This document shows positions 10,101 to 35,849 of a DNA stretch of 64,000 nt, piece after piece (position 1 is the stretch's first letter; every line of letters starts with the position of its first letter). The DNA comes from Schmidtea polychroa. Lineage: Eukaryota. The translations under genes were made by a program, and so were the position numbers. The notes under the pieces are model-generated. The model saw only the letters and a program-made list of their open reading frames with translations, was not told the DNA's origin and made no database searches. The DNA lies in contig CM097885.1 of the NCBI GenBank assembly GCA_044892525.1, positions 212,102,001-212,166,000 on the forward strand, in the 5' to 3' direction.

Positions 10101-13100
10101 GATAATGGGAGAAAAATACTCCCTAAGAGATATAGAGGAATGTAGACAGGCATCTCCGAATAAATTGGATATAGTAAAAAAGAAAGTCTCCTACCACGTA
10201 TACCAAGAATCAGATTTTATCCGAACACAAGCTAGAGAATGCGTAGTATCAAAGAAGGTGTTGGCGTATTACTGTGGACAATACTCATATTCAACCCTCA
10301 TATTACCTGGATTAGATAAAGAAATAGTACCTATACAACGAGAAGACTGTAAAGAGCTTTTTAGAACCGGAGCGATGAGAATCCGGGATGGAGTAACAAT
10401 ACACGGACAAAGCGGAATGATCAAGACGGAAAGTATCTACGTAGCCGGACGGGTAAAATCAACCGATGGATCATGCAACGGAGGTACATATACGATCCGA
10501 GGAGAGGTAATATCCGGAGTAGTAGTAATCGAGTCCTACACAGTGGAGTTGAAGGAATACGAAGCGCAATTCGACGCAAATAATTATCAAATGAAAACCA
10601 ACCCAGCATGCAGAGCTACGGAAAACGTGTGTAGAACGGGAATTTCGACTATAATATATGAAGCCAACACCCAAAAATGCCGACTCCAATTGTTAAAAAG
10701 TGCTCTATTCAATAAAGTAAAAGGAGAAATATACGAAAACGAAGATGACGATGAAGAGAATGGAAACGTAAGAATGCGAAATGGGAAACCAGTTCCACCA
10801 TCCCCCAAAGAAAAGAGACTCACAACACAAAAAACACCAACGGCATTAATTACAGATGATCCAGATATCGGTATGAGATTCATCAGAGAAAAAGAGACCA
10901 CCAAATGTGACAGTATAGTATACCGGACGAACTACGCAGGTATCTACATGTCAAGGCAAGTAATAGACCGAGCAGTGGGAAAGGTAGCAACGGAGGACGT
11001 AAAATTGTACTTGTATGCCAATAATAAGATGGACTTCTTATTCCATCGAGGACAAACAACAATGCAAAAAGTGTATTACGATCTTATACAAAATGACTGT
11101 TCATTGAATAAAGAGATACTAAAAACAAAATTAGCCATCGCAATAACACACCCAGATAACACAATGCCATCACTCCCGTTACCGGATGGACACTTTGGTA
11201 GAATGGTGGGAGAGGTAATGTATACATATGCATGTACCAAGACGTTTGCGCGACTACCAAGAAAACCCACAATTCCACCAGGGAAATGTGCAAACGAATT
11301 AGAAATTAGTTACAAAGGGCGGAACAGATTCGTTCAACCCGTCACTAGAATTATGAACCCAATTGGATTTTATCCGAACACCTTTAACTGTTCAAATGCA
11401 TACGGGCCATTTTATGAAAAACCCGATGGGAAATGGATAATGTTACCGTTAAAAGTCGAAGTGCAGGAACCTAAAAAGTTTGGATTAATAGAACTTGCAA
11501 CAGAACAGGATTTCAAACCAATTGATGTGTCAAAGGCGGGTATGTACTCACCAGAGGATTTAGAAACGGCACGATTAAACGTACTATTCCCAGCAAGGCG
11601 AGAGTCCATTTTATCAAATATGGTTACCATAACTGGTGGAACAAATTTTCAATCAAGTCCCAATTATGAACTATTATTATCACCGGATCATTTTCAACAA
11701 GCCACGTCAAACATGATGAAAGCAATGTGGGGAAGATTTCTAGTGTTCGGTCAAATGATGGCAGGAATATTGGGAATCATCTTAATTATTCAGATAGTCA
11801 GAGTAATATTGACCCAAATGTTGGCATGTTTCGATATATACAAACGAGAAAAGAAAGTAAATTGGAAGTTGATAGTAGGTTTTCTACCATTTTTGGCAAA
11901 AACAATGGTGTTGCACGGTCATTCTAAAGATATACACAGAATAAAACGATTAATCAAAATACTGACAAAAATAAAAGGGACAGACGAAGAAGTTGGCAGA
12001 CGATTCCGGAAAACAATGTATGATGAAGCAACGAGAGCGCAACTAAAAAAGAACAAACCAAAATTCTTCGACAGATTTAGGAATCGATCAAACAGCAGCG
12101 ATAGTGATGATGACGACAACGGGAATGACAAATATCCATATCCAAGTAGAAACCCGAATGAAAAACCAATAGAAACAGCGCCATATTGGGAGAAAGAAAA
12201 AACAAATACCTGGATAGCCAACGGAAGTTATATACCCCCAGATATTGTTGGACAACAAGCAGCTCTAACCATGACACAAAATATGTATCCACAGTTACCA
12301 AGTCAACCAGGAATGAATTATATGCCAACCCGAAGAACGAAAAGTGTAGATCAAGCAGACGACGTCAGAACAATAGCAGTAATGAGTTCACCTGGAGGCG
12401 CGGCAGTAACAGTCATGATCCAAATCAACGGGAAAGAGACAAGCGCAATGATAGATACCGGAGCAAATGTATCAGCAATAGCAATAAACCAAATACCCAG
12501 TAAATATTGGAAAGATATCGAACAAACAACTATCCATATTATTGCATGCAGTAAAGAAACCGTAGACGTAGTAGGAAGATGGTGGACTACGTTACGATAT
12601 CAAGATAATGAAATTGAAACGTATCTAGCGGTGATACCCAAACTGAGTGAACCATGTATAATCGGAACGGATTTAATGCCGGAGTTGTTCAAGGAAGTAG
12701 TAATTGATTTAACAACAATGTGTCTAAAAGACAAAATGGGTAGAATATGCAAGATGAACGCAATAATTAGATGCCCGGAGAAAATAATTGTACCAGCAAA
12801 ATCACAGATGATATGTCAAATAAAAGTGGATGCAGGAATGGAAGGAGAAGCCATTTTTGAGCCAAGCAAATCATTCGAAAAACGACGAGAATTACCATTA
12901 GCAAGAGAAATAATAACAATAAATGAAGAAGGGGAAATACCAATTAACATCACAAATTTCGAAGAGGAAGATAAAATCATATATGAAAATGAAAGATTGG
13001 GTAGATTGACACCCATGATAGACATCGAATTGCCAAAAATCACCAATGAATCAACGAAAGCTGAAGAATTATGGATAATTGATAGCACCTTGCTAACGGA

Positions 13101-16100
13101 AAAGGAGAAGGAAAGACTCCAACAACTATTGATAGAATATAAAGATATATTCGCAATTTCGGATTTGGATTTGGGAGCATGTGAGGTCACACTACACGCA
13201 ATACCATTAATAGACGAAACTCCAATTGCGTTACGACCATATAAACTAGCAGAGAAGCAAAAAGAGATAGCCGAAGCAGAAGTGCAAAAAATGCTAGATG
13301 CACAAGTGATCGAACCAAGTTGTTCGCCATGGCAATTTCCAGTAGTCATGGTGAAGAAAAAAGACGGTACTCAGAGATTCTGTATCGATTATCGGAAACT
13401 AAATGCAGTAACAAAAAGAGACACATACCCGTTACCAGACATCAATGAGATGTTACTTATGCTGCAGGGGGCCGCATATTTTACATCTTTAGATCTGAAA
13501 AGTGGATATTGGCAGATCAAAGTAAAGGAGGAAGACAAAGAGAAAACAGCATTCACATTGGGCCGAGATCTATACCAATTCAGGAAAATGCCGTTTGGAC
13601 TAACCAATGCCCCAGCATCATTTCAGAGATGTATGAATTTTGTCACACACGGGATCAAGCAGTGTATGGTATATATTGATGATTTATTAATATATTCAGC
13701 AACATATGAACAACATTTGGAAGATATCAGAAACGTGTTCATCCGATTACGACAATGGAAACTGAAACTTAAACCATCCAAATGTGATTGGGCAAAAGAA
13801 AAAGTTACGTTCTTAGGACACATAGTGTCAGCAAAAGGCAAAGAACCAGATCCAAGAAACATAGAAAAAATAAAAACATGTCCAGCACCAAAAACTGTCA
13901 CCCAAGTTCAAGAATTTCTCGGATTATGCGGATATTATCGTAAATTCATTAAAAACTATGCAGGTATTGCGAAACCAATCCAAGAGTTGGTGAAAAAAGA
14001 TATCTCATTTATTTGGGGAGCAGAACAGCAAAAAGCATTCGAAACACTACGAGACAAATTGATTGAAGCTCCAATACTAGTACATCCTGATTTCAAGAAA
14101 CCGTTCTTGTTAGCAACAGATGCCAGTGGATATGCAGCCGGAGCAATATTGGGACAACTCGACGAGGAAGGAAAAGAAAGAGTGATTGGATACTACAGCA
14201 GAACGTTTAAAAAGCATGAGAAAAACTATTCCGTAACTGAAAGAGAAGCGTTAGCAATAATACAAGCGATTAAGCACTTTCGATATTTGTTATGGGGACA
14301 CGAAATATGTATCACAACGGATCATCAACCATTAGTATGGCTCGGACAGCATAAAGAAGCTTCAAGTAGATTGATGCGATGGGCAATGCAGTTACAAGAA
14401 TATTCACCGTTCATAAAATCCAAAGCGGGAAGAGCAAATGCCAATGCAGATTGTATGTCCAGATTTATTTTTCCAGACTTAGTAGATCACGAAATGCAAC
14501 GAATATGTCTGATGGTAGCGGAAGATTTAGATTTTTGCCAATTACGGAAAGACCAACAAGAGGATGTAGAGTTGAAACAAATAATCGAGTATGTGAAAAC
14601 CGGGAAAGCAGAGGCATATGAGAAAGATCAAAAATTGAAAGAGCATATGGATAAACATCGACATCGATATATTATCGAGAAGGATTGGTTATTGATAATG
14701 GATGGGGAAAAGAGATTGATGTGCATCCCCGAGAATAGACGTAAAGATTTGCTAACGCAATACCATGACGGAAGACTCGGAGGACATATGTCATCTAAAA
14801 AGACGTTAGCACGGATGAAACAAAAATACTTCTGGCCTACGTTATCCGAAGACATAACGGAATGGGTGAAGAATTGTATAACTTGCGCAACCAGAAGAAA
14901 CACGGGAACAAAATGGAAGGCACCATTAAAGCCAATGCCAGTACCAGCAGAACCCATGACTATGATATCTATGGATGTAGTCGGTCCATTACCAGAATCA
15001 GATAGAGGGAATATTTACATATTGGTGATCACGGACTATCTGACTAAATTTCCCGAAGCATTCGCTATGGCAGACCAGAAAGCAAAAACAATCGCAAAAA
15101 TATTAGTAGAGGAAATATGTTGTCGATATGGAACGCCGAAACAAATACTGACCGATCAAGGAACAAATTTCATGAGTGAGATAATGAGCGAAGTAACCAA
15201 TTACTTCAAGATTGCAAAATTAAGAACATCACCGTACCACCCACAAACAAATGGTATGACAGAAAGATTCAACGGAACCTTGATCCAGATGTTATCAAAT
15301 TATGTCGATCGTCATCAACGAGACTGGGATGAATACATAAAATTATGTCTAATGGCTTACAGAATGTCGATTCACGCGTCCACAAAGATGAGTCCGTTCA
15401 AGTTGATGTACGGCAGAGAATGCAATATGCCAATGGATTTGGAGTATCAGCCACCAATATCACAATACATGGAAATAGACGATTACGTAACCAAGTTCAA
15501 GGAAAGAATGCAGGAAATCTGGGAAACTGCAGGATTGAATGTAAAATTTTATCAAGAAAGTTACAAAGATTTACATGATAGAAAGAAAAACGTCAAACCA
15601 CATACGTTTCAAACAGGCGATTGGGTGATGATCGAAACACCGGAATTGATTCCAGGAACCACCAAAAAATTGCAACGAAACGGCAAAGGACCGTATGAAA
15701 TTTTATTCGTCGGAGAAACTAATGTAAGAGTACGATTAGTGAACAACCCTTTTACAAGACCAATATACGTAAATGTTGCACGATGTAAGCCAATTCCGAA
15801 AACCGCCACCAGTCAGCCAGAAGGACGCACATTAACGACAAGATCACAAACGTATAGAATAAATATGTTACAGCAGATAAACGAACCAACAGGTAATCGA
15901 TTGGGGTTACAACCCTCAGAAGCCGAGAAAATCATAAAGGAAGTAAAAGCTAAAATGCCCGGATGGGCAAAAGACAGATTAGATTTTGAGATATTGGGAG
16001 GTCTGCTAACAATGATAGAAAACTATGCCAATCGAGAAAGAACACACCCATTACTCAGAGTGGTTAAAAGTCAATGGCCTATATTATTCACAATCACAGA

Positions 16101-19239: not shown

Positions 19240-19599
19240 ATGGAGCAAGGAAATAACGAAATGAACCACAACACAGTAACTGAAGAATTATGGAAGCAAC
19301 AATGTGCCGTATTAGCACAATTAGTGTCTAATTTACAAGAACAAGGATTGACGATGCAAAAGAACCTAATCGAGAGTATGAACAGAGGATTTAGTTATTT
19401 GAAAATAATTGAAGACCAGAGGTTAAAAATCGAACAAATGCACAGAGAAATAGAGAGGATAACCCAATATAGCCGAAGACAGGAAATCGAATTGGAAAGA
19501 ATGGTGGAGGAAGCAGAGCAGACGGAAATGGAAGATTGGTCAGAATGGCTAATGAGTAGAGAGGAGGGCGGACACGAAGCCGACTCTTCCGAACCATAG
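19240..19599 (+). CDS. Accessory coiled-coil protein (119 aa)
   Basis: Intact ORF with heptad-rich E/Q/L composition; TTAG|gaATG context. Confidence 0.65.
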   Translation: MEQGNNEMNHNTVTEELWKQQCAVLAQLVSNLQEQGLTMQKNLIESMNRGFSYLKIIEDQRLKIEQMHREIERITQYSRRQEIELERMVEEAEQTEMEDWSEWLMSREEGGHEADSSEP

Positions 19600-19684
19600 A
19601 CCAAACCTAAATTAAAATGTAAATAACTGTAAATAAAATCTCGAGCCTGTTTCGATAAGAACTATATGTATATATAATTATAGA

Positions 19685-21073
19685 ATGGATAAACGACAAA
19701 GAGAAGAGTTCAGAGAGATTGTCGAACAAGTCCGAAAATCTACAACGATCAAAATACACAAACATGTCATGTGTGGAATATGTGAAAAGTTGTTAAAGGA
19801 ACCTCACCAAACCCAATGTGGATGTAGATTATGTAAGGAATGTATCCGTGAAACAATAAAAAATAGACCACAGTGGTGCCCGGTGTGCAGAGAGACACTA
19901 ATATCGAGTTTAGAAGACACTAACGAAGATAAAGCCGCAGTGAAAGACATGCTAAATACCAATCTGGGATGCAAAAATACCCCATGCGAATGGAAAGGAG
20001 TAATATGGAAAGTAGTGCAACATATGGGAGAATGTATGTACAAAATCGGCCAATGTGAAAGGTGCCATAAAACTATTCGGGCAAGCGAAGAAAAAGAGCA
20101 TCAAAACCAGTGTGAAGAGAGATTAGAAAGATGCGAACATTGTGGAGAATTAGATACGTGGAAAAATCTCACCATCAAACATCACAATGTCCAAGAGGAA
20201 AAGGTATGTGCGGAGTTCAGTGGGGAATGCCCAAACGGATGTGAGAAAGGGAGAATAATGAAAATAACCCAACACCTAAAGGAATGTGAAAAGAAGAGAA
20301 TGATATGTGTGCTAGGTAAATGGGGCTGTCCGACACTATTACACCGAGGAGACCTACCACACCATCTAATGGAAAATGTAATAACTCACGCAGAAATGTG
20401 GTCAACTGCGTTACAAGAAAGCGAAGAGAAAGTAAAACAAATGGAAATAGAGATAACATCGTTGAAAGGGTTAGTCAAAGAACTACTAGAAGAAAGAGAA
20501 GCGTTCGAAGAAGCCCGAGCTAACATCAGAATGCAAATAAATCGTATAGAAATTAGCAACAATCAGGCCAAGGTGCTACATCAAAAGATAACAGAGATAA
20601 ATCTAAATGAAGTAATACCAACAGCACCCTACATATGGAAGATAACGGGAATAAAGGAAAGAATATGAAAAGCAAAAACCGGAGAAGATACAAGACTAAC
20701 AAGCCCCGCATTTCATTCCTGGAAAAACGGATACAAAATGAAAATGAAGGTATATCCCAACGGGGACGGAACCGGATTAGATACGCATTTTTCGATCTTC
20801 TTTATGCTCTGTAAAGGGGAGTATGATGAAATATTAGAATGGCCGTTCCAGGCAAAAATCGATATTACTCTAATGAACAACCAAAGTATACACGAGCAAA
20901 GCTTCAAAACAACGGGGAATCAGATAGCTTACCAGAGGCCCCTCAACGAAGAAGGAGCAGCAACAGGAGCACCGACGTTCATCTTACAACAAAGGGTAGA
21001 AGATATGGCGAGAAACGATACCGTATATATCAAGATGACGGTTCGGAGGGAAGGAAAGAGTAGAACCGAGTAA
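19685..21073 (+). pseudogene. TRAF-family gene (RING, TRAF zinc fingers, coiled coil, MATH) with one in-frame TGA at 20666-20668
   Basis: RING CGICEKLLKEPHQTQCGCRLCKEC..CPVC and several Zn fingers. MATH YIWKI...*...SPAF..GYKMKMKVYPNGDGTGLDTHFSIFFML.KGEYDEILEWPF. ORFs 19685 and 20738 are in the same frame. Confidence 0.9.
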
Positions 21074-21265
21074 CCAGGGTGAATAACGTTGTATATAATA
21101 AATCTGTATATATCGGTGTATATAACCAGTAAAATAATATATAATAATAGTATGGGATCCACAAATATAACAACCCAAACTGAAGCGGAAAATCCAACAA
21201 AAACATCAACCGAATAATAAAATCCAATAATGCGATGATATTTAATCAGAATCTATAATTTAGAG

Positions 21266-22321
21266 ATGACACAAGAAATAACCACCACAACTACGATGAC
21301 CCCAAGTAATGCAACCGAGATACAAACCCCCAAAGAACATAGCGAGAAATGGAACAAGGTGATGTTCCAATTAACTAACCGAACCCGCAACCACATCGAA
21401 GAAGCCAAGGAAGACGAAAATAGTAAATATCGATGGTTAATAAACAATTTAAGAATCGAAGCAGAGGCGTGTAAAAGAGCCTCTAAGTGGGCGTCATTGG
21501 AAAATACCCGCCAGGAAACACACAGTCACTACCTAAAACAGTTAGTGCAGGAGGCACGAAAACGGTTGACTGATGAAAATACCAAACGAGAAGCCGAAAA
21601 ACAAAAGGAAGGGAGAAAAATGAATCACCTATTGGCGGAAGCCCGAAAATGGAAACGACAGAACAAAGAAATGAAGAAGGAAATGAAAGAATTGCCCATG
21701 AGATTAGAGTACGAGAGCGAGCAGGGTAAATGGGAGGAAAATCTAGTCATAAAGGAAGAGCTAAAACGGCTAAGAAAGATCGCGGCTCGGAGTCAAACCT
21801 GGCAGACCAAGGCCATGGAGTTTGAAAGACATTTAGCCATGAAACTCTCCATAAGAGAGCACGAGAATGCTGCGATGGAAGAATTGATACTCCAGCAGTC
21901 AGGGCGAGTCGGGGAATTAATAAATCAAGTCACCGAGCTAAAACGAGATGTCAATGGATATCAGGGAGCTCTAGAACAAAGAAACATGGTATTGGTGGGA
22001 AAGAATAAAAAACTAGAAAACGAAAGAAAAATGTATCACGAAAATCTCAAAAATCTGGAGATAGAAATCGAGAAGTGGAAGGGCGACGAAAAGATAAAAG
22101 AGTTTGAGAGGCAGTTAAAGGTAAAAGACGAGGAGACGAGATACCTCACCTATTTGCTCGACGAAGAATTGAACATTACCAGGGCACTCAGAGATGAAGT
22201 TCAGGAGCTGAGAGCTCAAATTCCCCAATATTACATACCATATGACCCTATTGCCATCCAACTACAGGCAGCGGTCGAGAGCGATGAAGGATACGGGGGT
22301 CAGGAGGAAACCTTCGTATAA
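21266..22321 (+). CDS. Accessory long coiled-coil protein (351 aa)
   Basis: Intact ORF with continuous charged heptads; TTTAG|agATG; AATAAA just after the stop. Confidence 0.75.
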   Translation: MTQEITTTTTMTPSNATEIQTPKEHSEKWNKVMFQLTNRTRNHIEEAKEDENSKYRWLINNLRIEAEACKRASKWASLENTRQETHSHYLKQLVQEARKRLTDENTKREAEKQKEGRKMNHLLAEARKWKRQNKEMKKEMKELPMRLEYESEQGKWEENLVIKEELKRLRKIAARSQTWQTKAMEFERHLAMKLSIREHENAAMEELILQQSGRVGELINQVTELKRDVNGYQGALEQRNMVLVGKNKKLENERKMYHENLKNLEIEIEKWKGDEKIKEFERQLKVKDEETRYLTYLLDEELNITRALRDEVQELRAQIPQYYIPYDPIAIQLQAAVESDEGYGGQEETFV

Positions 22322-22491
22322 GGGCTAATAAAAAATTCAAAATTCAAAAATTGGGACTATATCCCAAACAAAAAAAATTAATAGTACAGTAAAAGTATTT
22401 GAGGGACTGTAACCCTGTGTAACTAAAAACGATATAAATGTATAAGTATAAGTCGCACTGTAGCGCATGATTAATTGTAAATATTATAGAT

Positions 22492-23196
22492 ATGAAGATT
22501 GAAGAGATAGTTGAACCCATGAGTGAAATAGAAGAAGGAGAGATTGTAATGGAAGTCGCAGAAACACAAATACTAAAGAGCGAATTACGAGAAGAGAAAC
22601 GAGAAAACGAGAGATTAGTAAACAAATATATGGAAGACCGGAAAATAATTAAAGTACTAAAGAAAGAATGCAAAATGCTGGGAGAAGTAAAGAGAGAAGC
22701 AGCAGAGAGAAATGAATGGCTGCAGGAGCAACAAAAACGAGGAAGAAATTGGGAAAGAATTGCAGAGGAATTATGGCAAGAAAGGGCAAGCTTCAAAGCA
22801 GAAGAAGTAATCCAAGACTACTGGAAAACAGAGGCGAGAGAACGCCAAACAACCATAAATAGATTAAATCGACAATTGGAGGAAAACCAACGAGAAAGTG
22901 AAGAAATGAAGAAATGGATTCGTAAATACAAAGAAATCGAGAGGCAACAACAACAACGAAACCATCCACAAGAGAACGAACAAGATTTCCTACAAATCGA
23001 GTTAAAAAGAAATCTCGACAAGAAACGAGAAGAAATAAGCAAACTAAAAAGGGAGATAAGACACCTAAAAAGGGAAGCCCGTGAAAAGGATCGGCAATTA
23101 GAGATGATGCCGGAGTTAAGACACCGGGTCATTGAAGCGGAATCTACCCTGATGAGAAATGCCGAAAATAATCCCAAAGGAGAACCATCTAACTAA
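22492..23196 (+). CDS. Accessory coiled-coil protein (234 aa)
   Basis: Intact E/R/K-rich ORF; TATAG|atATG. Confidence 0.72.
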   Translation: MKIEEIVEPMSEIEEGEIVMEVAETQILKSELREEKRENERLVNKYMEDRKIIKVLKKECKMLGEVKREAAERNEWLQEQQKRGRNWERIAEELWQERASFKAEEVIQDYWKTEARERQTTINRLNRQLEENQRESEEMKKWIRKYKEIERQQQQRNHPQENEQDFLQIELKRNLDKKREEISKLKREIRHLKREAREKDRQLEMMPELRHRVIEAESTLMRNAENNPKGEPSN

Positions 23197-23235
23197 AAGC
23201 AATTAAAGCCAGTGTAAATAATATAATAATAATAG

Positions 23236-23847
23236 ATGTATATTAGTACAATGCGGTATGGAATCGTGATAACGGTAATGGTATTGATAAATCACCTGAT
23301 GGAGAAACAACAATTAAACGCTCAACTGACAAGCATACGAGATCACCGCAATCGAAATCAAAAAGCCAAACCAGAACCTTGCCAATGCCAATACCCCAGT
23401 ACAATAAAAACCAACATCCTCCATAGTATCCAGTCAACTCGGTCATATGTTAATAACGTCAGAAGTCTGTGCAAAAATCACCCCATATGCCGAATGATGG
23501 ACCGAAAAATACTCGAACAAGTCCAACACTTCGATCAGTTGGAACAACAAATACAACAAGAAGTGTTCGAAAATCCGGCCGAGACAACAGAAACACCCTC
23601 AAATAACAGCGACACCCACTACCTTCTCTACGTAGTGATCGCAGAAACTATCTTGTTATGCCTCATAACTTTCCTAAAAATCCTCGAAGTTAAGAAAAAA
23701 TGTCAGAGCTCGAAATCTAGAGCCACCGTACAAAACCCAGCCGAAATAACCAATGTTATCCAAACCACAAGCTCACCCAGATTAAACCATAAAGAATCTC
23801 CTCAACCATCGTCCAATCGCCCAGTCTACCATAACACCAGTTCCTAA
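23236..23847 (+). CDS. Accessory predicted type I membrane protein (203 aa)
   Basis: N-terminal hydrophobic YGIVITVMVLI, 4-Cys ectodomain, TM YLLYVVIAETILLCLITFL, basic Ser/Pro tail; AATAG|ATG. Confidence 0.7.
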   Translation: MYISTMRYGIVITVMVLINHLMEKQQLNAQLTSIRDHRNRNQKAKPEPCQCQYPSTIKTNILHSIQSTRSYVNNVRSLCKNHPICRMMDRKILEQVQHFDQLEQQIQQEVFENPAETTETPSNNSDTHYLLYVVIAETILLCLITFLKILEVKKKCQSSKSRATVQNPAEITNVIQTTSSPRLNHKESPQPSSNRPVYHNTSS

Positions 23848-24470
23848 TTGTAGCAGCAAACCCCAACCAGAACCATCAGAGTGACCAAACAATGCCAGAA
23901 CTGAACTAAAAACACTATGTTGTGAAAAACTTTGTTGTGTATATAAACCATCACCATAAGTGATGCCTGCTTGGTCTTGATTTGACCTATATCTTATTAA
24001 TAAAATTTTATTGATGTTTATAATTTTGTTAATCACTATGTTATCTTTTTATGAATGTGCTTATCTTTTTCTGAGAGAATAAGAGTAGCTCAAGTATGTA
24101 ATTGCGGAGGCAATTTTGTCGGGTCCCCGAGTGATTTGTTGGGCTGAGTCGAAGAGGATCGGAGGGATTAGGTTAAGCATAACGAAACTAAAATTAAAAA
24201 TAAAAATAAAATAAACAAATCTACGAAACAAAGTAGAAAGGAAATAAGAAAAATAATAATTAGAAAATAAGAATTAAAACAAAAAATATAAAAACACGAA
24301 AAATTGAAATAGGACCATAAAATGACGGAAAATGACGTAAAATGCAGTAAATAATAAGGAAATTAAAGAAAATAAATAAAAATACAATAAAAATAAGGAA
24401 AATAGGAAGAAATAGCTCAAAAACAAGGAAAACAAATTAAAATAATAAAAATAGGCGGTACTCCATTCTG

Positions 24471-24504
24471 ATTGGTCCGCATAAGTAGAAAACTAATATA
24501 TAAG
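24471..24504 (+). promoter_or_regulatory. Candidate LTR promoter (inverted CCAAT box plus TATA box)
   Basis: ATTGG at 24471 and TATATAAG at 24497, followed by an AG|GTAAGT donor at 24553. Confidence 0.55.
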
Positions 24505-26637
24505 CAGACACTAAAATCATAACAATTACCGTTCATCTAACCACTACATTAGGTAAGTGTATTTTAATTAACAATTACCGTTCATCTAACCACTACATTA
24601 GAAACCAAAATTCACAGCGACAGCCACAGATTTACCGAAATCATTGCAAGGACTATTCTAGGAATCCAGGAAACTCAACCAATTCTATAACCTATTCTAG
24701 TATTAACCAATTCTGTTCAGAACTTTTCGATTCAGCCTATTTGAAAACTTGGTAAGGGATTTTTTCATTATTTAGGTTTACCATGCAACGATCATGTATA
24801 TTTATGAATTTGTAGTAGTCTAAATTTAACAATAATTTTTCTCTTTTCGTTTGATTTGAAGGTCTTACTTAATTAAATGTTTTAGTAATTTGGTAATAAA
24901 TATTTTATGATGAATTTTTATTATTTATCAATTTTATGGTATTCAAAATTTTGGAGAAACGTGGTGTTGAGATACTCCATGTCATGGTGTGACGTGCCTT
25001 CGGGAGCTCAGCCGGTGGACATGGGGTCTTTTCAATCACGCAGCTGATTCGGGCCGTAATGTGGGGGCTTCCTCACGGGTCCGTCGCTGAGGGAGTGACT
25101 AAATTCTATGAAAATTCGTACGAGGAAGTAGGGTAGGAGAATGAATCGATCAACAGGAGAAATTTGGAGATATTCGCGCAGTGATTGAGGGTGTCACACT
25201 AGCATGTAATAACAGCGGCTTATCAAGTTCAAAATCTTCTTTATCATCCAGTAGACCTAGGCAAGTCTTTCGTTAAAAAACCGTCCAACCTTGGTAGCGC
25301 TGTAGTTGCCATAGTTCTCGAATTCGCTAGAAATTTAATCTTGAAATTTTCAGCTAACGATTTTTGCGTAATCGCTATTCCTATCGGCTATATGTCCTCT
25401 CAAAGATAAAATTGTATGAAATCACGTAATTAAATAGGTTTAAATAATCATTAAAATAAAAGCGAACAACTCCAATCAGTAAAAATGTATTTCTCTAAAC
25501 AATAATTTATTAGAATAATGTTTACCCAGTAAAACATAAATTGTCCACATCCCGTCGAGTAGAAAATCCAGCATTGAGATAAGTAATAAATCTCCAATTT
25601 GACAGCAGTAGCCAGCGTACATTGATAGTGATGGAGGGCCACGAGACGAGCTAGTAAATCATATTTGAGGGATCGTGAATTAATTCCAACATTGATGATG
25701 TAAAAATCCGGTTTTTCCAAAATATCCATGAGAGATAACAGGCAGCATTTGAGGTAGATACAGGGTTCGTCAGTGATGTAACATGTCATATGGGAAGAAC
25801 ACACCTGCATGCATACACAGGCATAGTATAGAGCATGAAACGATCAGTCAGCGATTATGACTAAGTAGGAGTGGATGAGAAAAATTTTCATGTGCCACGC
25901 GTTTCCAGACCATCACCGAGACTACTCGTAATCGGTAGATTATACAGACAGTCAATCACAGAGAACCCCACCTGGCGCGTCAGTTGAAATGTGATTACAA
26001 AAAACATACTAATGACATTCACCCGATTTCTCACCAATCGGAATTAACAGACAACCGACAGGCGGTCCTTTGGATGCACTTAGCTAAACTCATTTAATTA
26101 TTTAGTTTTACTTTAATCATTCATATTTTCTTATAACTAAATAGGTGTAAATTAATTAACAAAACTTTTACGTGTCATAAATAAATAATTGTAGAGAAGG
26201 GGATAGATTACCGTTTATTTTTGGGTTCCTATTCATATGAAACAATTAATTTAAAAGTAAATCGACCTATTTGGACATGAGACTTACACCTCAAAATCAT
26301 TTATCTTGGGTATATCTGTAATTACATTCAAATTCTCTGACGATGCTATTTTCAGGTAAATTAATTAAATCATAATTTCATCAACTAGTGATTCCCCTTG
26401 TTAATGGTAATACTATATTTTCCTTCGATAAGATCTTGCATGGACGCTCTGTTCCCGTATAAATAATGACCCCAAGCGTACAAGATCTGTAGGGTAAAGA
26501 AGTCTCTTCAGGCTAATAAACTCGTTTCGTCTGTGTAACAACCTATGATCAGGGGGGTATGAGTGTGACTAGATGATGATGTCTCAAATTTGCCTTAGTT
26601 TGATTTTATTCGCATTTTCTCTTCATAGCTATCCAAG

Positions 26638-27381
26638 ATGTCTCCAAGTTCCAATAACATTCTTAAACCTTGCTTTTCTTGCTCGGACAAGAATTCAGTC
26701 ATCAGAGATCTACAAGCGCAAATTGGAAAATACAAAAGGAAGATAGATGAGTTGGAGGGGACATGGTTTAGTCCCGCGCAAATGAAGGAGACCCAGAAGA
26801 AATTGCATCGAAGCGAGCACTGTCGTGATGCTCTCATTTCCGAAAGTCGGGCACAGAGGAGCCTGATAAAAGAGCAGTCAGAAGCGCTGCATAAACTATA
26901 CATACAAGCGGCGACCACGAGAAAAATAGCGAAGATCCCAATTAACGAAGCCAGCAATCTCTTCCCAGCGCATCATGATACCTCCGTCAGGCTTTTGCCT
27001 CCACTCGCGAAGTCTTGCCATGGGTGTGTAGAGTCCGAGCTCTCTCCTAAAGACCCAGAGATTGTATTCACCGGGACCAGTAAGGTCCAGCCAAATCTCG
27101 CGTCCTCATCAACCGTACAAACGATCACCACTTCAAAGCCTAAGCGTCGACAGCTGTCTCGAGCAGAACGCAAACGGAAACAACGGGAACGGGCATCTGG
27201 CAGGCAGTGTACATCGTCAACCGTCGCTCCAGTCAGCGGTAATGGTAATCTGACGGTGGTCGACCCAACAACCGGGATCTCCGGGCGAGTCATCTCCGCC
27301 GTCGGGGTGACGTGGGAAGAAAATGCCGCCGAGTTCTTTAATCTGGACGAGTTACTCGCCGACTCGGAGTGGGAGAAATGA
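26638..27381 (+). CDS. Second copy of the LTR-encoded 247-aa protein
   Basis: Protein identical to 921-1664. Confidence 0.75.
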   Translation: MSPSSNNILKPCFSCSDKNSVIRDLQAQIGKYKRKIDELEGTWFSPAQMKETQKKLHRSEHCRDALISESRAQRSLIKEQSEALHKLYIQAATTRKIAKIPINEASNLFPAHHDTSVRLLPPLAKSCHGCVESELSPKDPEIVFTGTSKVQPNLASSSTVQTITTSKPKRRQLSRAERKRKQRERASGRQCTSSTVAPVSGNGNLTVVDPTTGISGRVISAVGVTWEENAAEFFNLDELLADSEWEK

Positions 27382-28499
27382 GGATTTTCCCGAAACATGG
27401 CCTCCTTCTCAGGAGAGGATTGCACTTATCTGATGTCGTTTTCTACCTTGGTGTCATTCAGCTCGTGTAAAATTCCTTGTATAAATTCTCTAGGTGTTTG
27501 TATAGTAACTTTAATAAAAAAATAAAAAAATTTCTCGTTTATGTACGTGTTATCTCGTGTGTTGAACTTATAAAATAATATGAACTTGCAAATGGTATTG
27601 AGAGTTTCGGAAAATAAGGAGTATTGGTCAATTGGTAATCCCAATGGGAAATCTTGCGACGGGCGACAGAATGAAAAGACGTAAGTCCTTCTATCGGCGG
27701 TCAGGGTTAGACAGTCGAGGCCTCAGTAGGGAGTAGTCCGAAGGAGATGGCTCACCTGCCTACTGGTGTCTCGCCGGCATAGCACAGTTCCAACGTGAAG
27801 CGATTCACGGGTGCTATGTTGGAGGGTAGATTATGTACGGGTCCTGCTCGGCGATGACCAGAATCAAGACGAGCGTAATCGATATGGACATTCATCCTCT
27901 AGACTAAAAGCGGTACTGAAGGGGGTCATCCGGGTAGCCGCCCGCCAACATTATAATAAAGTGGAATTTTATCAATATTTGTGAATACTAACAATATATT
28001 AACATATATAATTAAATATCATAATCTTTTATATATAAAAATATAATAATAAATTACTTTTAAAAATGAAGGAGAAAGGTTTGTTCTAATAATATAGAAA
28101 ATATAACCGAGAAGAAAAACATGCTCTACTCACAAAAAAAGAACTCCAGAAGTTAAGATATACGAACCAATTCTATATGAAGATAGTAAACAGATTCACA
28201 GACTACCGAAGATGATTTCAATTATCTATTGTCGAATTTATTTGAATAAAATCTTATGTTCTAGTTTATTATTTATTAGAAACTTCACCAATAAATATTT
28301 ACTAAATTGATCAATTATAGCTAAAATAATTTATTTACTATGAATTGAACTGTTTTCATAAATATTACACAGAAATCAATAACAATCTCCTTAAAAACTT
28401 CATTTGTATTCTGCTTAATCAACTCTTCCTTCGTTCGTCCTGTCCATGTCTTTTATTTCTGACATTCTTCATAATTTAAATGAATTTAAACTTCATTTT

Positions 28500-28850
28500 C
28501 ACTAATATCCATATTCATATTTCATTGTGCATATTTTAAAATTAGTCTAACACCCACGTAGCATAAATCTTTATGCCTGTTCAAGATTATACCTTCATTA
28601 CTTGTTATTGCTTTTTGTTTAATATTTTGACAATGTATTTATGTTGTACTTCTTTGAAATTAGTAACTCCGAAGTGTTTAGTTTTATCTTAAATGTTCTT
28701 TTAGCTGAATTGGTGATTTGGGGAATTATTGTTTCGTTATCTTCGGCGTATGCAATGATTCTGTATTTGTTTATCCCTGTCCTGAGGTATTTATTCAGGG
28801 TAAATGTGGTGGTGGGCCTACCCTCACCATTCAACAAATGCAAAAGATGT
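28500..28850 (-). pseudogene. Degenerate non-LTR retrotransposon RT fragment
   Basis: PTTTFTL..YL, IIAYAED (YADD-like), IKLNTS and LCYVGV (KYLG-like) occur in the expected order. Confidence 0.5.
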
Positions 28851-28857
28851 TGCTACT

Positions 28858-29270
28858 CGGAAGCTGACTATTCAGAACTACAATAGCATTTAAGGCGGAG
28901 TAGATACTTTAGATCAGCTCAAAAAATCTATAAGTCCATTTTTGAAAACTCTTGCTGACGATTTACTCGGAGATGACGCAAATTCAAATGGTGATTTAAA
29001 TGAAAATTCTGTTCAGTCAAAAATTCCAAAAGTAAGGCGAGGAAGATGCATTATTTGTCAGGTTAGCAAATCAAAAACCAGAGTAAGTTGGGATAAATGT
29101 GGAAATTTTGTTTGTGAAAAGGAGAGGGATTTGTTATTTGCAAAAATTGTTTATGGTAAAAAAAATGTCATAACATTGTATTAACACATTGACGGACAGT
29201 AGAAACAAGTGACATTTGAAAATTGACACTATATGACGGCTATAGACGCAAGTGTCCGTCAACGTGTTAA
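28858..29270 (+). mobile_element. piggyBac-like transposon relic (internally deleted 3' end)
   Basis: YNSI/KGGVDTLDQL motif (frameshifted), C-terminal Cys-rich RRGRCIICQ..KCGNFVCEK, and a terminus ending GTG-TTAA. Confidence 0.78.
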
Positions 29271-29509: not shown

Positions 29510-32500
29510 ATGGCTAAATCTATTTCATATCAGGAATTACATAAAAAGGGGAAAACAATATTTGATTACGATGACAATTTAAAGTTATTTATAATAATTG
29601 TTAATTTTTTATTTTTTATTATGTAGATATATTGTAAGTGCTGGTGTAGATGAAGAAATCAAAGTTTGGTCAATATCAAAAAACGAAATTGTTATTAATT
29701 ATTCACTAAAAATTGGAGTAAATTGCATTGTTGTTGAGGTAGTCATTTTTTAAACTTTTCATCATTGTTACTTTAAAATTTTAGAATGAAAGAATATTTA
29801 TTAATTCCGGTAATCGTATTGAAATGCTTTCAATTGTTAATCAATCAACAAATAGCTATGTTTTTGTTAGTTTTACTAGCAACGTAAATGACATGAAATT
29901 AAATAAAACTAAAACAAAGCTAGTAGCATGTAGTGATGACTGCACTATTAAATTAATTAACTTGAATGGTGATGACCCAAAGCGCGAAATTTTATTTAAG
30001 GGTCACAATGGCCCAGTATGCAATGCGTCAATTAATTGTGACGATACTTATCTCGCGTCAGCTAGTTGCGATGGTTTATTAATGATATGGGATGCGAGAA
30101 CCGGGAACAAATTAAAATATTTGCCAATTGTTGAGAAATGTGCTGATATTTCTAACATGAAGAAATTATCTATATTGAAGTGGCATCCGATTAATTCAAA
30201 AGTAAATACGAATTTATTAATCATTGTTATAACAATGTTGCATAGGTGTTAGGGATAACAATGGGATGTGAGATAAAATTTGTTGAGGGTGATGATTTTG
30301 AATTAGCCAGCAGTGTATTGTGTAACGAAGGTGAATTAAATGATTTCGCATTTAATAATGAAGGAAATTTATTGATCGGAGGCACCCGAAATGGCTGGAT
30401 ATGTATTTGGGATATAGTCAAGAAGAATTTATTAACTAAGTTAGATTTGAGAAATTATAATTTTATCGGCTTAAATAACAAATTATGTTAAAACTTTCTT
30501 TAAATAATTAATAAATTGTGATTATTTTTACGGAAATTATTACGATTTAAAATTAAATCAATGATTTGATAAAACATTTTCAGGTGGCAAAATTCACGAA
30601 AATCGGCAATTGCTAATGTCACGTGGTCAGGGCCATCGAATATTATATTTTCCGATTTCAATGGCTGCTGGGAAATGTTTCAGGTGACACTTGATCAGCC
30701 AATCAAATCAACAGCCAATGATGATTTCGATAATTCCTCATTGACTATGGAGGAAATGAATGAAATATTTGATCTTTCCATAGAAAATGAAGAAGTGATC
30801 CCTCGGGATTGTGAAAAATTGCAGGAAAATACTGTTGATCCTAGTGATGAGCAGTCAACAACTGAAAACCAATCAGAATCGGTTCATAGTGACAGTTTTG
30901 AGTCTGATGAGGATAACGAAATCAGTTTGGCTGATCTGAAGGCGGAATACGAGAATCCCAATAAACCGGAAGAATTGCCACCACCAGTCGTGGTTAACAG
31001 GAGAAAAACCATCCAGAAATTGAGACAGCCCCATCCACCAATCAGATCAACACAATGTCCAAGAAATGGAAATAAACAGATTTTACTGTGGAATCCAATT
31101 GGAGCGTTGAAAAATAATTTTGACAGCGAAAACGATTACAATTGCTTCTTGGAGGTCGATTTCCAGGACCGGGAAGTGAATAGCAATTTGATATATCGGC
31201 ACAATGTCATGAGATATGAATTGGGTGATGTAAATCGGCAAGCATTGATGCTCATTTCCAAACAGTCGGATAACTGTTTACGGAGCGATGCCGACAGTGA
31301 CGACGAGGATGATGATGATGATGATGACGAGGACAGTCAGCCGGCAATGGTGCATGTGCGACCGCTCAATGGCTCCTCCTGGACCGAATGGAATATTCTG
31401 TTACCTTCTAGTCGAGAAAAGGTACTCGGGTGCTGCTTAGTTGGCCAGACTTACGCCGTTGTTATGAGTGATAAATTCCTACGATATTTCATGGTGAATG
31501 CCGGTGGCATACAAGCATATGTCGAGTCGGTTCATGGCAGTCCAGTAGCGATAGCGTCATCGTCGAGCTATTTGCTCAGTCAGTCGGCAGGGGATAAATT
31601 CATCCGGGTTGTTATAGTGACCGATGATGGTAAGCAGCTGGTGTGGCGTATCGATCTATTCAAAGTGACCGACAAACCGGTCCAATGGTTCAACAAAGGC
31701 AAAATGCATGCGGTCGTTGCCACATCACCATGGTACTCATTGCCTTTATCTGGATCGGCGACATTGAAATGGATTGGGTAAATAATCAGCATTCAGTACA
31801 TTTAATCTCAATCGATTCAGATTTTCCGACTCTGGCGCGCTGTTCACTGTGGATTCCAAACAATCGGTTCGAAGGCTTCATCTGGAATTTGACGAGAACA
31901 GAAAAAGGTTTTCTGAGCCCCGATGGATACCTGTGCTCAATTTGAGGTCGGCACTTGCGAAAGATTGCCGTTTCATCGATCGATATTTCCCCATTGGAGT
32001 TATGGACCGGGGTGAGCGGTGTTGCTTCCTTGCTGTCCATTGCCGGGATTCCCGTTATCCCACTGTCACTCCTTGGCAGAATTTATCAATGATTGATTTC
32101 CGACTGCCGATTTGTGGACCCACGAAATCCGAGCTCATCCAAAACGAGGTAAATCTCACTGATGGTTACGGCAAATGATATCACTGCTTAGAACGGACTC
32201 CTAGTCAATCAATTACTCACAAATTGGACCGACGGTACCAGTTTCAGTTTGCTGGAGTTGACCGAGAAACAATTGCTGTTAAAATTGTTTGCGGTAAGTT
32301 TTTATTTGTTACAACTGTTTATTATTCACATCCCTGTTTGCCATTGGTCGATATTATTAATATTATTTTTACTATTATTAATTATATTATATTAATAATA
32401 TTTTTACTTTTTGAATTAAAGGAGAAAATATTTTTCAATAGAATTTAAAATTACTGAAAAGTTTCGAAAAGTTTTCTTTGTATTTTTAATAGAAATATTT

Positions 32501-35500
32501 TATCTTTTTTTTAAAAAAATTACAAATTTCACACATTTAATAAAAATTTAATGGTTTCATACTGTCTTTATTATTATTTTAATTTTTTCATTATTAATGT
32601 TATTTTAATTATTATTATTTTTTTATAATTATTAATTTTTATTTAAAAAATACATTTAAAATTAACATTATTTTATTATATATTTATTATTATTTTATTA
32701 TATAATTTATTTATTATAATTATTATTCTATAATTAAAATAAAAATTATATCAATTTTTAATAATATAATAATTATGAAATAGAATTAATTATATCTAAA
32801 ATAATCGATGTTCAACTGTCTTTATTTTTAATTTTTTTATTATTAATGTTATTTTAATTATTAATTTATTAATTTTTATTTAAAAAAATACATTAAAATT
32901 AACATTATTTTATTATAATATTAATTACTATTTTATTATATAATTTATTTATAATTCTATAATTAAAATAAAAATTTTTAATATTTATTATTTTTCATAA
33001 TTATATTATTTTTATTATTTTAAAATTAAATTCTTTTAATATATTAATTTTTGTATTAAAATTATTTTTTATAATTATATTTATTATTTTTAATAATATA
33101 ATTATTATGAAATAAAACAATTAAATATATCTAAAAAATCGATATTCAACTGTCTTTCAACNNNNNNNNNNNNNNNNNNNNNNNNNNNNNNNNNNNNNNN
33201 NNNNNNNNNNNNNNNNNNNNNNNNNNNNNNNNNNNNNNNNNNNNNNNNNNNNNNNNNNNNNNNNNNNNNNNNNNNNNNNNNNNNNNNNNNNNNNNNNNNN
33301 NNNNNNNNNNNNNNNNNNNNNNNNNNNNNNNNNNATATAATTTATTTATTCTATAATTAAAATAAAAATTATAAATTTTTAATATTTATTATTTTTACTA
33401 TTTTAAAATTAAATTCTTTTTTTAATATTAATTTTTGTATTAAAATTATTTTTTATAATTATATTTATTATTTTTAATAATATAATCATTTTAAAATTGA
33501 ACAATTAAATATATCTAAAAAATCGATGTTCAAATGTCTTTATACTCTTTCAATCTGTCTTTATTATTATTTTTAATTTTATTATTAATGTTATTTCAAT
33601 TATTATTAATATTTTATTATAATTATTTATTTTTATTTAAAAAAATACATTAAAATTAACATTATTTTATTATAATATTTATTACTATTTTATTATATAA
33701 TTTATATATAAAATAAAAATTATAAATTTTTAATATTTATTATTTTTTATAATTATATTATTTTAAAAATAAATTTTTATGACAATTTTTTATTATATTG
33801 TATAATTAGAATGAAAATTAAATTATTTTCTTAATATATTAATTTTTTTATTAAATAATTTTTTATAATTATATTTATTATTTTTAATAATATAATCATT
33901 ATGAAATAGAACAATTAAATATACCTAAAATAATCAATGTTCATCCAGAACTTGAATAAAGGTATGGTATAAATGTATGGTGTATGCCCTTATAACTCCA
34001 TAATAATTGATCTTATGTGATCTATCCTCGTTTACACATAATGGGATCCATTACATAATCCAAATGCGATTACGCAACACACATTATACAATATGTTGAT
34101 ATATTGCTTGCTCTAATGACATTCGGTGTCAAACAGTCGAAACTGGTAATTTACCCCTATAAACTATTGCTATCAGTTATTATTCATTATATCCCTGCCG
34201 CATGATGATAATCCGCATGAAGGAAAGCAATACATTTCATCCAATGGTTCTCAGGATTTTAATACATCCAAACTACTTCTTTCTTTGACTGAAATATCCC
34301 AATTCTTAATCATCTTTTCAAGTTTGGGAACAGAAAAGTTACATTGAACGATGTTGTTGCCTCTGTGTGCTGGTGTGTTGTCGCGGTGAACAAAATTCCA
34401 TTTTTCTTCGTCGGATATAATCTTTTTGCTTTGAGTTCATTTTTTAAACGATCTAGTACTCACCTATAATTGTTCTATCTTTTTCACCCCAGAAAGCAGT
34501 AGCAATCATTTTTATAATCGATTGTTTTTTGGTCGTTGCTCCGAATTGTTTTTGACTGTTTGTTAATGAACTTGTTAATGAAATCACTTTTTTCATAAAT
34601 AAGACTTAATAAATGATGTTAAAACACGTTGAGCGTTGAGATGTTTGTAATCATGGCTTATTCACGGATCTTCACTTGTGTTAGTTTCGAATTTCATTGT
34701 GGTTATCTTTTGTGAATACCGGAGTAATTGCTTCCTTTGGATGACCACTAGTAAATTCATATAATCAATAAATAGCAAATCGTTTATGATTAGGAGACTT
34801 TTGTAAGATTTTGCTTCTTATTTTATACCTATGACGTCACCACTTGCCGAAACCAAGGACTTATCAAACCGCTTAGTGTATTCATTATGAAAATTATGTC
34901 ATTCCGATCACACAAAACAATATAAAAATTCTTTAAATAATAACGTACTCATTTATCTTATATTAATAATATAATTTATTTTATAATATTTATTCTACTG
35001 ACAAATTATAAGCAAAAATTATTTTTTTGATTAGTTCTACTTTTTCACTTTGTATATAAAATAACGATTGATTAGTTAATATCATACAATTGTTGCACAA
35101 ATTAAAAAGAAATCCCTTGTCTTTTCCCTATAAACGAAATATTGATCTTACCCATTCGCTTGTATCGCAATTGACTGTTTGGGATTCCATACAAATTACG
35201 CGCTGTATAATTTTAGAATGAATAAGCACAACAATTTGGTATTTTTCACATATTTAGAATGCTGTTGACGAAGATCAAGACGGTCGGGCATTATCCATAG
35301 GGAAATTGATGCCAGATTCACAAGTTGTCCAATTGGCGATCAGATACGCTGCCAGGAATAATAAACAATATCTAGCAGAGAAAATGTGTGAATTAGCTAT
35401 AGAAAAGGATAAGGAGATGTCCAATACCGATGAGTTGCTACAATTCAATAACTATTCAGCTGGTCGAGGCGATATAGAAAATATCGAACCGGCGAGTCCA

Positions 35501-35635
35501 AAAGGAGTTGATCCTTCCGCAAATGCTACAAATCCTTCAATAGTGAATTCTCCACGTCAAATATCCACAGTCAAAACCAAAAGGAAATCTGAACACCCGA
35601 TTGAAGGTACATTGGAAAAGATTATGAAAAAATAG
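29510..35635 (+). CDS. WDHD1: WDHD1/AND-1/Ctf4. Exons 29510-29583, 29627-29738, 29785-30201, 30246-30438, 30584-31777, 31821-32148, 32192-32293, 35258-35635
   Basis: GT-AG introns give a continuous frame. WD40 motifs (FTSNVN, FKGHNGPV, LASASCDG), SepB-like WIGFSDSG and LLKLFA..QLAIRYAAR..LAEKMCELAIEK match AND-1. Confidence 0.92.
32500..33945. repeat. Extremely AT-rich tandem/satellite-like repeat in WDHD1 intron 7, spanning assembly gap 33162-33334
   Basis: Several imperfect copies of a unit of a few hundred bp containing GAT(G/A)TTCAACTGTCTTT and AAAAAATACATT(T)AAAATTAACATT. Confidence 0.8.
34200..34760 (-). pseudogene. Tc1/mariner transposase relic
   Basis: SGHPK (SGRP-like), FVHRDNTPAH (QDNAPAH-like) and NPENHW, with stops and frameshifts. 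Confidence 0.5.
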
Positions 35636-35849
35636 AAACTTATTGATTTTTATGTGTTTCACAAATTGCATTTACTAAATATTTTTCAATATATTCTTGT
35701 TTTGTCTTTAAATCGAGCGAAGTTCTCATTAAAGCATTATTTTGCGTTCAATCAATTTGTAAGCAACATTTTACCTCATCGAGCTCTTTCTAGCGTAACT
35801 CAGAATACAAAAAATTGTCTCCTACTCTTGACGCCCGTTGAGCGATCAA

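Follow-up and report, generated by a model that had tools for sequence, protein, structure and literature searches.

The element and its LTR open reading frame

We analysed a stretch of 64,000 nt from Schmidtea polychroa (the window; positions are counted from its first letter, and features lie on the plus strand unless stated otherwise), which covers most of a giant Ty3/gypsy retrotransposon that we classify, from its sequence, as Burro-like. The long terminal repeat (LTR) of this element carries an open reading frame (ORF) of 247 aa at 26638–27381. The 3' LTR is fully contained in the window (24137–27950; 3814 nt, with TG...CA ends), and the 5' LTR is present from the first nucleotide of the window, its visible 3' part spanning 1–2233 and holding a second intact copy of the ORF at 921–1664. 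Positions 1–2233 equal 25718–27950 save for 3 mismatches, and the single mismatch within the ORF is synonymous. An internal region of 21.9 kb (2234–24136) and two 3.8-kb LTRs would bring the element to about 29.5 kb, with its 5' end outside the window.

The initial annotation had described this LTR as a complete gene, and the presence of a real gene is borne out. An ORF of this length was reached in 0 of 500 simulations of the LTR and 0 of 1000 local simulations, and we rejected a chance ORF on that ground. A phmmer search against 1.84 billion representatives returned 9 matches (E 1e-7 to 7e-4) and a profile search added 5, giving 14 distant homologs in total, all of which match only the two LTR copies within the window. 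Single-sequence word searching yielded 0 homologs among 614 candidates, and no ORF-related loci were found in viral contigs or in metagenome contigs. In the 12 of 14 homologs that could be cut at the core motif, the core is 31–40% identical to the query and 29–96% identical among the homologs themselves, with near-invariant residues W43, P46, L66, E69, R71, Q73 and R74. The homologs share a GTW-x-x-P turn and an R-x-x-L-I-x-E-x-R-x-Q-R helix. An Arg-rich patch (5–8 Arg per 12 residues) is found in the query and kept in 8 of the 14, the other 6 being cut short or without the patch, and several homologs end in acidic-aromatic stretches.

The homolog records comprise one 94-aa fragment and 13 longer gene models, with gag or pol in 0 of 14. 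Unrelated host Pfam domains (transporter, convertase, actin, phosphatase, MCM, aminopeptidase) are carried by 12 of the 13 longer models, and we read these mixtures as probable artefacts of gene prediction, in which an exon of a dispersed repeat was picked up through its strong acceptor, as an LTR-borne exon would lead one to expect. In three models with unrelated host parts (P0002, P0007 and P0010), the start Met of the homologous region is preceded by an identical set of four residues, which suggests a shared acceptor just upstream of the start codon, as in the LTR gene.

Copies of the element were available from four runs (X1, X2, X3 and X6) in the form of assembled contigs, from which no RNA start, end or strand can be read; X1 and X6 are presumed, by guess, to be RNA, and X3 is DNA-like. 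Statements on contig joints cover 15 of 38, and those on loose ends the ones listed. Behind 26801, an X3 loose end (6 contigs) keeps the reading frame; over 30 nt it differs at 8 positions, 7 of them synonymous as counted by eye. The P-value of this excess is 6e-5 without transition bias and about 1e-3 by hand at 30% synonymous. Taken together, the homologs, the synonymous excess in one stretch and the intact ORF in both LTRs indicate that the LTR ORF is a real, selected gene of an unnamed protein family. Its base content is that of an outlier, with 29% A compared with 37–47% in nine other element ORFs and the highest GC content at third codon positions (0.55).

Identity between the two LTRs stops at CCAACA, and a primer-binding-site (PBS)-like 18-mer (2241–2258), which we take to resemble a tRNA-Pro site, follows the 5' copy at a distance of 7 nt. 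The LTR start at 24137 rests on the inverted termini TGTTGG...CCAACA and on one X6 contig, in which 135 foreign letters stop exactly before 24137; TGTTGG, however, occurs 17 times in the window. Contigs 27862–28500 and 27858–28500, in X2 and X3, cross the right host junction with 0 differences, so that the insertion is genuine rather than a product of misassembly. Cover by X6 is missing over 25604–27547, and a 12-A loose end of X6 behind 22377 falls at a genomic A run; neither of these two observations served as evidence. The block just before the 3' LTR (24100–24136) is common to diverged copies and occupies the position of plus-strand priming, a role it may serve, although it is not purine-only, unlike a typical priming tract. 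Loose ends before 24106 in X1, X6 and X3 show the same short terminal motif after differing upstream sequence. We rejected an LTR start at 24100, since the upstream letters of different runs are alike and so represent internal sequence rather than host flanks. Near copies of the PBS core occur within the LTR at 25002–25016 and 27921–27934, with 2 mismatches each in the tested 14-mer (by eye, the first has 13 of 14 matches in a register shifted by one); they could be extra tRNA contacts or circularisation signals.

The internal region begins with a RING-finger ORF (2485–2970) that has an acceptor 2 nt before its ATG and its own T-rich AATAAA at 3030/3093. A tandem array of 74–80-nt units (3482–3834) lies between this ORF and gag. 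The gag unit (4548–7177) consists of a 671-nt leader behind a strong acceptor at 4547, with 0 ATG against 8.1 expected (0 of 5000 shuffles as low), and of the gag ORF at 5219–7177, in which Pfam gag and CCHC zinc knuckles are matched. Upstream of gag (4660–5218) there are overlapping ATG-less open frames, one of which continues from 4898 in frame into gag. A 3912-aa ORF follows (7189–18927), with a weak Bcl-2-like match (E 0.078 only), a mononegavirus-type fusion glycoprotein (PF24664, E 1.8e-71) on the N-terminal side of the protease, reverse transcriptase, RNase H, integrase and ankyrin repeats. As gag ends at 7177 and the env-pol ORF starts at 7189 in another frame, these are separate ORFs and not a single gag-env-pol polyprotein of the kind described for Burro1, a split that may be specific to the copy examined. 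Five accessory cassettes (19240–23847; 119 aa, TRAF-like, 351, 234 and 203 aa) have TAG 0–2 nt before each ATG, and the last is followed by a T-rich AATAAA at 23999. The TRAF-like gene (19685–21073; RING, zf-TRAF and MATH) has one in-frame TGA at 20666–20668. Matches to MATH, ankyrin and RING are clear, and no BIR domain was found among the 10 element ORFs scanned.

The element resembles Burro/GYPSM1 (PMC6431247, in part) in its size of about 30 kb (internal region up to 25 kb in Burro, 21.9 kb here), in a gag with CCHC knuckles, in a mononegavirus-type env before the protease and the order protease, reverse transcriptase, RNase H and integrase, and in its cargo of ankyrin, TRAF/MATH, RING and a weak Bcl-2-like region. 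It differs in having gag and pol in separate ORFs, in the downstream position of its TRAF gene and in that no BIR was found. The section of that review on Burro/GYPSM1 names no LTR gene, whereas the LTR here carries one. Our literature search returned no account of a gene in a Burro LTR, though the primary Burro papers and their supplements may contain one.

Predicted structure and role of the LTR protein

The AlphaFold monomer of the LTR protein, built with 10 sequences, has a mean pLDDT (predicted local distance difference test) of 64, with high values at about residues 21–100. It contains helix 18–40, the GTW-x-x-P turn, helix 46–98 and an Arg-rich helix at 175–187, the rest, including the acidic-aromatic tail, being disordered. 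When residues 15–120 were modelled as a dimer, with the alignment not used, they formed a parallel coiled coil with a score of 0.58 (best of 3 controls, 0.01), a contact agreement between runs of at least 71% and a pLDDT of 79. Among microbial proteins, 21 of 30 solved pairs but 0 of 23 single chains attained the mark applied to dimers; among eukaryotic proteins, the figures were 17 of 29 for pairs (7 of 16 for those of animals) and 0 of 30 for single chains. We predict that the LTR protein dimerises through a parallel coiled coil and carries, besides, an Arg-rich helix and the acidic-aromatic tail. Pfam, PDB, Foldseek (E 0.001), VIA-align and Atlas (all matches below 0.9) gave no named family, and the best VIA-align hits (Z 6.0) were generic coiled coils only. 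The layout is not that of a bZIP protein: the basic region of bZIP factors sits directly N-terminal to the zipper, whereas the basic helix here follows the coiled coil on its C-terminal side, at a distance of about 75 residues.

Rev, Rex, Rem and Tat are regulators with an Arg-rich motif, and foamy Tas is an activator. The initial annotation had speculated on a Rev/Tat-like regulator. The LTR protein resembles these regulators as a small accessory protein with a predicted Arg-rich helix, predicted self-association and an acidic-aromatic tail, and the Arg-rich patch is a feature of its own family. It differs in its 80-residue coiled coil, in the lack of a Leu-rich nuclear export signal and in the lack of a significant sequence or fold match to Rev. 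The export-signal pattern has one match (214–224), which is Ile/Val-rich and lies within the unconserved tail. Pfam REV gave E 7e-4 for 1 of 10 members, below the cut-off, with no match for the query, and the basic patch matched a nodavirus capsid arm weakly (E 0.11). 'Rev-like' is therefore best taken as a likeness of parts, not as membership.

We give about even weight to the proposal that the LTR protein acts in the nucleus on the element's own expression. It might instead be a host-directed adaptor, comparable to the RING, TRAF and Bcl-2-like cargo, with the basic patch merely a nuclear localisation signal. This would agree with the position of the conserved residues, which lie in the coiled coil and not in the basic patch, and with the apoptosis and ubiquitin pathways targeted by the element's other cargo (PMC6431247, in part). 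We nonetheless consider a host adaptor doubtful: the patch is dominated by Arg in the query and 8 of 14 homologs, and it has the weak matches to REV (sub-threshold) and to the nodavirus arm.

Transcription signals and the extent of R

The motifs claimed for the LTR in the initial annotation (CCAAT/TATA, splice donors, an acceptor, the 247-aa ORF, an AATAAA pair with a GT-rich tract, and a second TATA) were all found in place. Absent from its list were TATA matches at 24287, 27480 and 27569, a T-rich AATAAA at 24895 and a GTAAGT at 27681. Single motifs are weak evidence, and the TATA and CCAAT counts are near chance for the composition of the LTR (TATA, 5 seen versus 3.6 ± 2.1 simulated; CCAAT/ATTGG, 12 versus 9.3 ± 3.0). 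For AATAAA, 14 were seen versus 5.7 ± 2.4 simulated.

The best promoter candidate (24170–24503) combines an A-rich tract with ATTGG, the reverse of CCAAT, at 24471 (LTR nt 335) and TATATAA at 24497 (LTR nt 361; TATA1). Only TATA1, 1 of the 5 TATA matches, has a CCAAT at most 90 nt upstream, and its −300 to −50 region is 81% AT; an X1 contig from a diverged copy covers 24274–24635. A putative first exon of 33 nt (24520–24552) begins 23 nt past TATA1 and ends at a GTAAGT donor (24553), the strongest in the LTR (9 of 11 U1 matches, top of 210 GT), 56 nt downstream of TATA1. The 33 nt are repeated exactly at 24569–24601, and the donor and the end of this repeat delimit a mini-intron of 49 nt (24553–24601; GT..AG), the size of host introns, the neighbouring ones being about 43–46 nt. 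A joined, intron-less form (24519–24569) was found in X1 and in the DNA-like X3. We infer that the joined and unjoined forms are reverse-transcription products of spliced and unspliced RNAs starting near 24520. For mouse mammary tumour virus (MMTV), DNA copies that stem from spliced RNA have been described (PMC11998498, in part). Gain of the mini-intron by simple tandem duplication was rejected, as the 16 nt between the repeats are unique.

A second, weaker donor (GTAAG) lies at 24752–24757, and the leader up to it (24520–24751, 232 nt) is without ATG (shuffle P 0.046; spliced, 183 nt, P 0.10). A TATA box is present in only 5% of planarian promoters (PMC10558129, in part), so that motif reading can miss a true start. 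With these features in hand, we judge that TATA1 is probably the promoter at which transcription starts.

Further into the LTR, the AATAAA at 24895–24900 has a downstream T fraction of 0.48, compared with a median of 0.20 for the 61 AATAAA in the element plus 3' LTR, and would end a 0.4-kb R (the repeat at both ends of the genomic RNA). A fraction of at least 0.40 is found at 6 of the 61 (3030, 3093, 23999, 24895, 27513 and 27521). GC-rich module A (24950–25293) is weakly collinear with the 3' end of the LTR and is a possible old duplicate of R and U5 (the unique 5' region). TATA2 (26458–26464, equal to 741 in the 5' copy) is a possible internal promoter without CCAAT upstream. A pyrimidine tract and acceptor (26600–26628) end 9 nt before the ATG of the ORF. 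The distal polyA signal (27466–27570) contains three TGTA, AATAAA at 27513 and 27521 and a GT-rich tract, the AATAAA pair and tract lying 429 nt from the LTR end, and it overlaps TATA3 (27480) and the start of TATA4 (27569). The GC-rich terminal module B (27640–27950; U5) includes the GTAAGT donor at 27681. Over 301 nt, neither module A nor module B shows better folding than shuffled sequence (z −0.79 for module B), and Rfam gave no match in the LTR modules. A folding scan for structured RNA elements found 2 of 49 scanning windows at z ≤ −2.5, without an Rfam match, and module A reaches z −2.5 in 1 of the 49. Summed contig depth divided by that of the junction contig was 2–13 at 25928–26575, about 190–210 in the 5' part of the ORF, 240–590 at the LTR start, 880–1040 in module A and about 480 in module B; this ratio is not a copy number and the LTR start is of low complexity, so that the values were taken as a hint only.

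From the complete gene, the initial annotation had deduced a very long R. This does not follow: R ends where genomic RNA is cleaved, so the LTR gene alone does not fix its length, and AATAAA 24895 would give an R of about 0.4 kb, TATA 27480 a short one. It had also stated that the polyA site of the 5' LTR must be bypassed. Bypass is indeed needed but is not specific to the LTR, as the T-rich AATAAA at 3030/3093 and 23999 must be passed as well. Full-length RNA must in any case get past several such sites, so that 24895 and 27513/21 are both possible ends of R.

If R ran from a start near 24520 to cleavage near 27540, it would measure about 3 kb and place the whole gene in R at both RNA ends. 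The distal polyA signal, the best built of all (double AATAAA, three TGTA upstream, T fraction 0.42–0.44 downstream), is consistent with this extent, and AATAAA 24895, lying 143 nt behind a donor, could be silenced by U1 as in foamy virus (PMC3694450, in part). On the other hand, the T-rich AATAAA 24895 is met first, some copies skip the distal stretch or have other sequence in its place, and the R regions described measure 193 nt in foamy virus and 228 nt in human T-cell leukaemia virus type 1 (PMC3694450, in part). We hold the 3-kb extent tentatively, at somewhat less than even weight.

Alternatively, R could be foamy-like, extending for about 0.4 kb from 24520 to near 24920 and containing the major donor, and the gene would then lie in a 3-kb U5 that has a second polyA site of its own. 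Such an R appears somewhat unlikely; it and the 3-kb R are both sub-cases of the explanation we favour below. The downstream T fraction at AATAAA 24895 argues for it, as does the collinearity of 24880–25300 with 27500–27950, from AATAAA to the CCAAC end, at a score reached in 5 of 200 block shuffles. This alignment is weak, however (about half identical; 1 of 10 comparisons, another also reaching 5 of 200), and the site has no TGTA within 60 nt and stands in an AT-rich stretch where AATAAA is common. In foamy virus, too, the donor lies upstream of the polyA signal in R (PMC3694450, in part), a geometry that fits if TATA1 is used, as donor 24553 precedes AATAAA 24895 and 27513. The long LTR may then have grown from a 1.15-kb LTR by the addition of a gene cassette and a second R/U5 end.

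A conventional layout, in which TATA 27480 (or 27569) is the promoter, R measures tens of nt and the gene sits in a 3.4-kb U3 (unique 3' region) like MMTV sag or nef, we regard as unlikely. The gene would be made from the 3' LTR via the U5 donor 27681, and solo LTRs would be silent unless an upstream TATA fired. TATAAAT 27480 lies 33 nt before AATAAA, GTAAGT 27681 precedes all internal acceptors in the 5' LTR, and nef and sag are sense ORFs in the 5' third of the LTR (PMC2664473, in part). Yet this promoter lacks a CCAAT, and the sequence upstream of it is just 44% AT. TATA3 and one TGTA of the polyA signal overlap, 5 ATGs would fall within the leader, and the donor has 7 of 11 U1 matches versus 9. 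In addition, the stretch 27392–27661 is skipped or replaced in some X3 copies, and the start-to-donor repeat behind TATA1 would be a coincidence.

The initial annotation had also considered that the second TATA (26458) might shorten R to about 1 kb, still including the ORF. The motif is present (TATAAAT), a GTATG donor at 26557 would open a 72-nt intron (26557–26628), an upstream ATG at 26545 is in frame with the ORF, and a diverged X1 contig covers 25791–26663. No CCAAT lies upstream, however, and few diverged contigs fall on the stretch at 85% likeness, a weak point as depth is no copy number. As the source of genomic RNA, one layout among four, TATA2 is highly improbable; a role as an additional promoter that serves just the gene is easier to accept.

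Beyond the element, a piggyBac-like remnant (28650–29270; Cys-rich transposase tail, TTAA end) was recognised by eye, and a host WD40 gene (29600–35640), by eye resembling WDHD1/And-1, has introns of 43–46 nt apart from a single large one, which is AT-rich and contains an assembly gap. The minus strand carries another gypsy element, a small one (45907–51542), with LTRs 99% identical and ORFs of 391, 201 and 817 aa. Nested long inverted repeats occupy 57991–63930 (up to 146 nt, 71–84% complementary), with a 178-aa ORF between the arms.

Proposed serial cassettes and comparison with known LTR genes

TAG stands 0–9 nt before the ATG in 7 of 10 element ORFs, compared with 14.6% of 594 ATGs (29% of the 41 in AT-rich context). 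In gag the distance is 10 nt, and no such TAG precedes pol or the MATH piece. Together with the ATG-free gag leader, this excess points to one promoter and a short leader serving serial cassettes, the LTR gene being the first. In the mechanism we propose, transcription would start at about 24520–24525 behind TATA1, and the short ATG-free leader with its strong donor would be spliced to one of the serial acceptors, each just before an ORF; most cassettes would then carry their own polyA signal. As the first cassette, the LTR gene would yield the short mRNA that every 5' LTR or solo LTR makes by default. Its protein, made by default, would be well placed to switch on the other cassettes, either by favouring read-through or unspliced RNA or by activating the promoter. 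The 3' end of genomic RNA would fall at AATAAA 27513/21 or 24895, and the first DNA copy from the primer site would measure about 3.4 kb either way. The earlier view of a solo LTR as an autonomous expression cassette is likely, judged from motifs and sequence context: ORF, acceptor and polyA signal all lie within the LTR, and with a start at the first TATA the LTR gene would be self-contained.

The adenovirus major late unit has one promoter, a common leader and serial acceptor-ORF-polyA cassettes. The likeness extends to the first cassette as default and is an analogy only, adenovirus being an unrelated DNA virus with no homology implied. Flatworms use spliced-leader trans-splicing, and flatworm leaders end in AUG. 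The acceptors before the ATGs could accordingly be trans-splice sites that cut a polycistronic RNA rather than cis sites, and the short AT-rich spacers, with AATAAA/TGTA shortly before TAG-ATG, would suit this. We find trans-splicing very unlikely, as the leader AUG would be out of frame for the five ORFs with TAG 1–2 nt before the ATG, and the element has its own strong donor and an ATG-free leader.

The best overall explanation, which we hold with moderate confidence, is a selected LTR gene in a single-promoter, multi-cassette element with a nuclear self-regulator. Several observations weigh against it. The first 1581 nt of the 3' LTR (24137–25717), with the first TATA and both donors, are without a partner in the window, and none of the 15 joints listed connects an LTR donor with acceptor 26628. 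X3 copies in which 27392–27661 is skipped or replaced have lost the distal AATAAA. The joined mini-intron form is equally explained by recombination between the 33-nt repeats, which does not explain why the repeat borders run from start to donor. For 2 of the 7 ORFs the TAG is in frame, which could stem from the way ORFs are called. For the gene itself, the homologs are unnamed gene models whose LTR location is presumed; the synonymous 30-nt stretch was chosen after being seen; and of six tail variants listed at 27200–27252, 5 fall at first or second codon positions and 1 at a third. For the protein, coiled coils resemble many solved structures, so that the dimer result may reflect such likeness, and the missing Leu-rich export signal also counts here.

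A more far-reaching claim is that a Ty3/gypsy LTR is an autonomous spliced gene past its promoter, in an R or U5 that measures about 3 kb and entails a first DNA copy of about 3.4 kb, and that its new Arg-rich coiled-coil protein moves a multi-cassette unit with one promoter from short LTR mRNA towards read-through. This full combination is rather unlikely. If it were true, every intact solo LTR would supply a regulator in trans, solo LTRs would be coding units rather than silent scars, and the first reverse-transcription product would be far longer than the R-U5 lengths described. The LTR gene offers a candidate mechanism by which full-length RNA could be made from a 30-kb element despite its many internal polyA sites; no retroviral protein is known to control polyadenylation (PMC3694450, in part). 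Burro1 is reported to protect planarian stem cells (PMC13465017, in part), so the regulation of Burro-class elements matters for regeneration work.

The layout would resemble that of foamy virus R, with a strong donor a few tens of nt past the likely start and upstream of LTR polyA signals, and with spliced mRNAs that serve internal genes (PMC3694450, in part). Foamy virus R differs in measuring 193 nt, in having one polyA site and in having no gene downstream in the LTR. With MMTV sag, lentiviral nef and the bovine foamy virus LTR ORF (PMC2664473, PMC11998498, both in part), the LTR gene shares a long sense ORF in the LTR, intact in both copies; no sequence likeness was found between the LTR protein and these three. 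The sag and nef ORFs lie in the 5' third of the LTR, in U3 and upstream of the promoter (PMC2664473, in part), whereas here 2.1 kb separate the best TATA from the ORF downstream of it, and the LTR contains an acceptor and a polyA signal that belong to the ORF. LTR ORFs are known from vertebrate retroviruses upstream of the promoter, and a conserved gene downstream of it that has an acceptor and a polyA signal to itself would differ from them.

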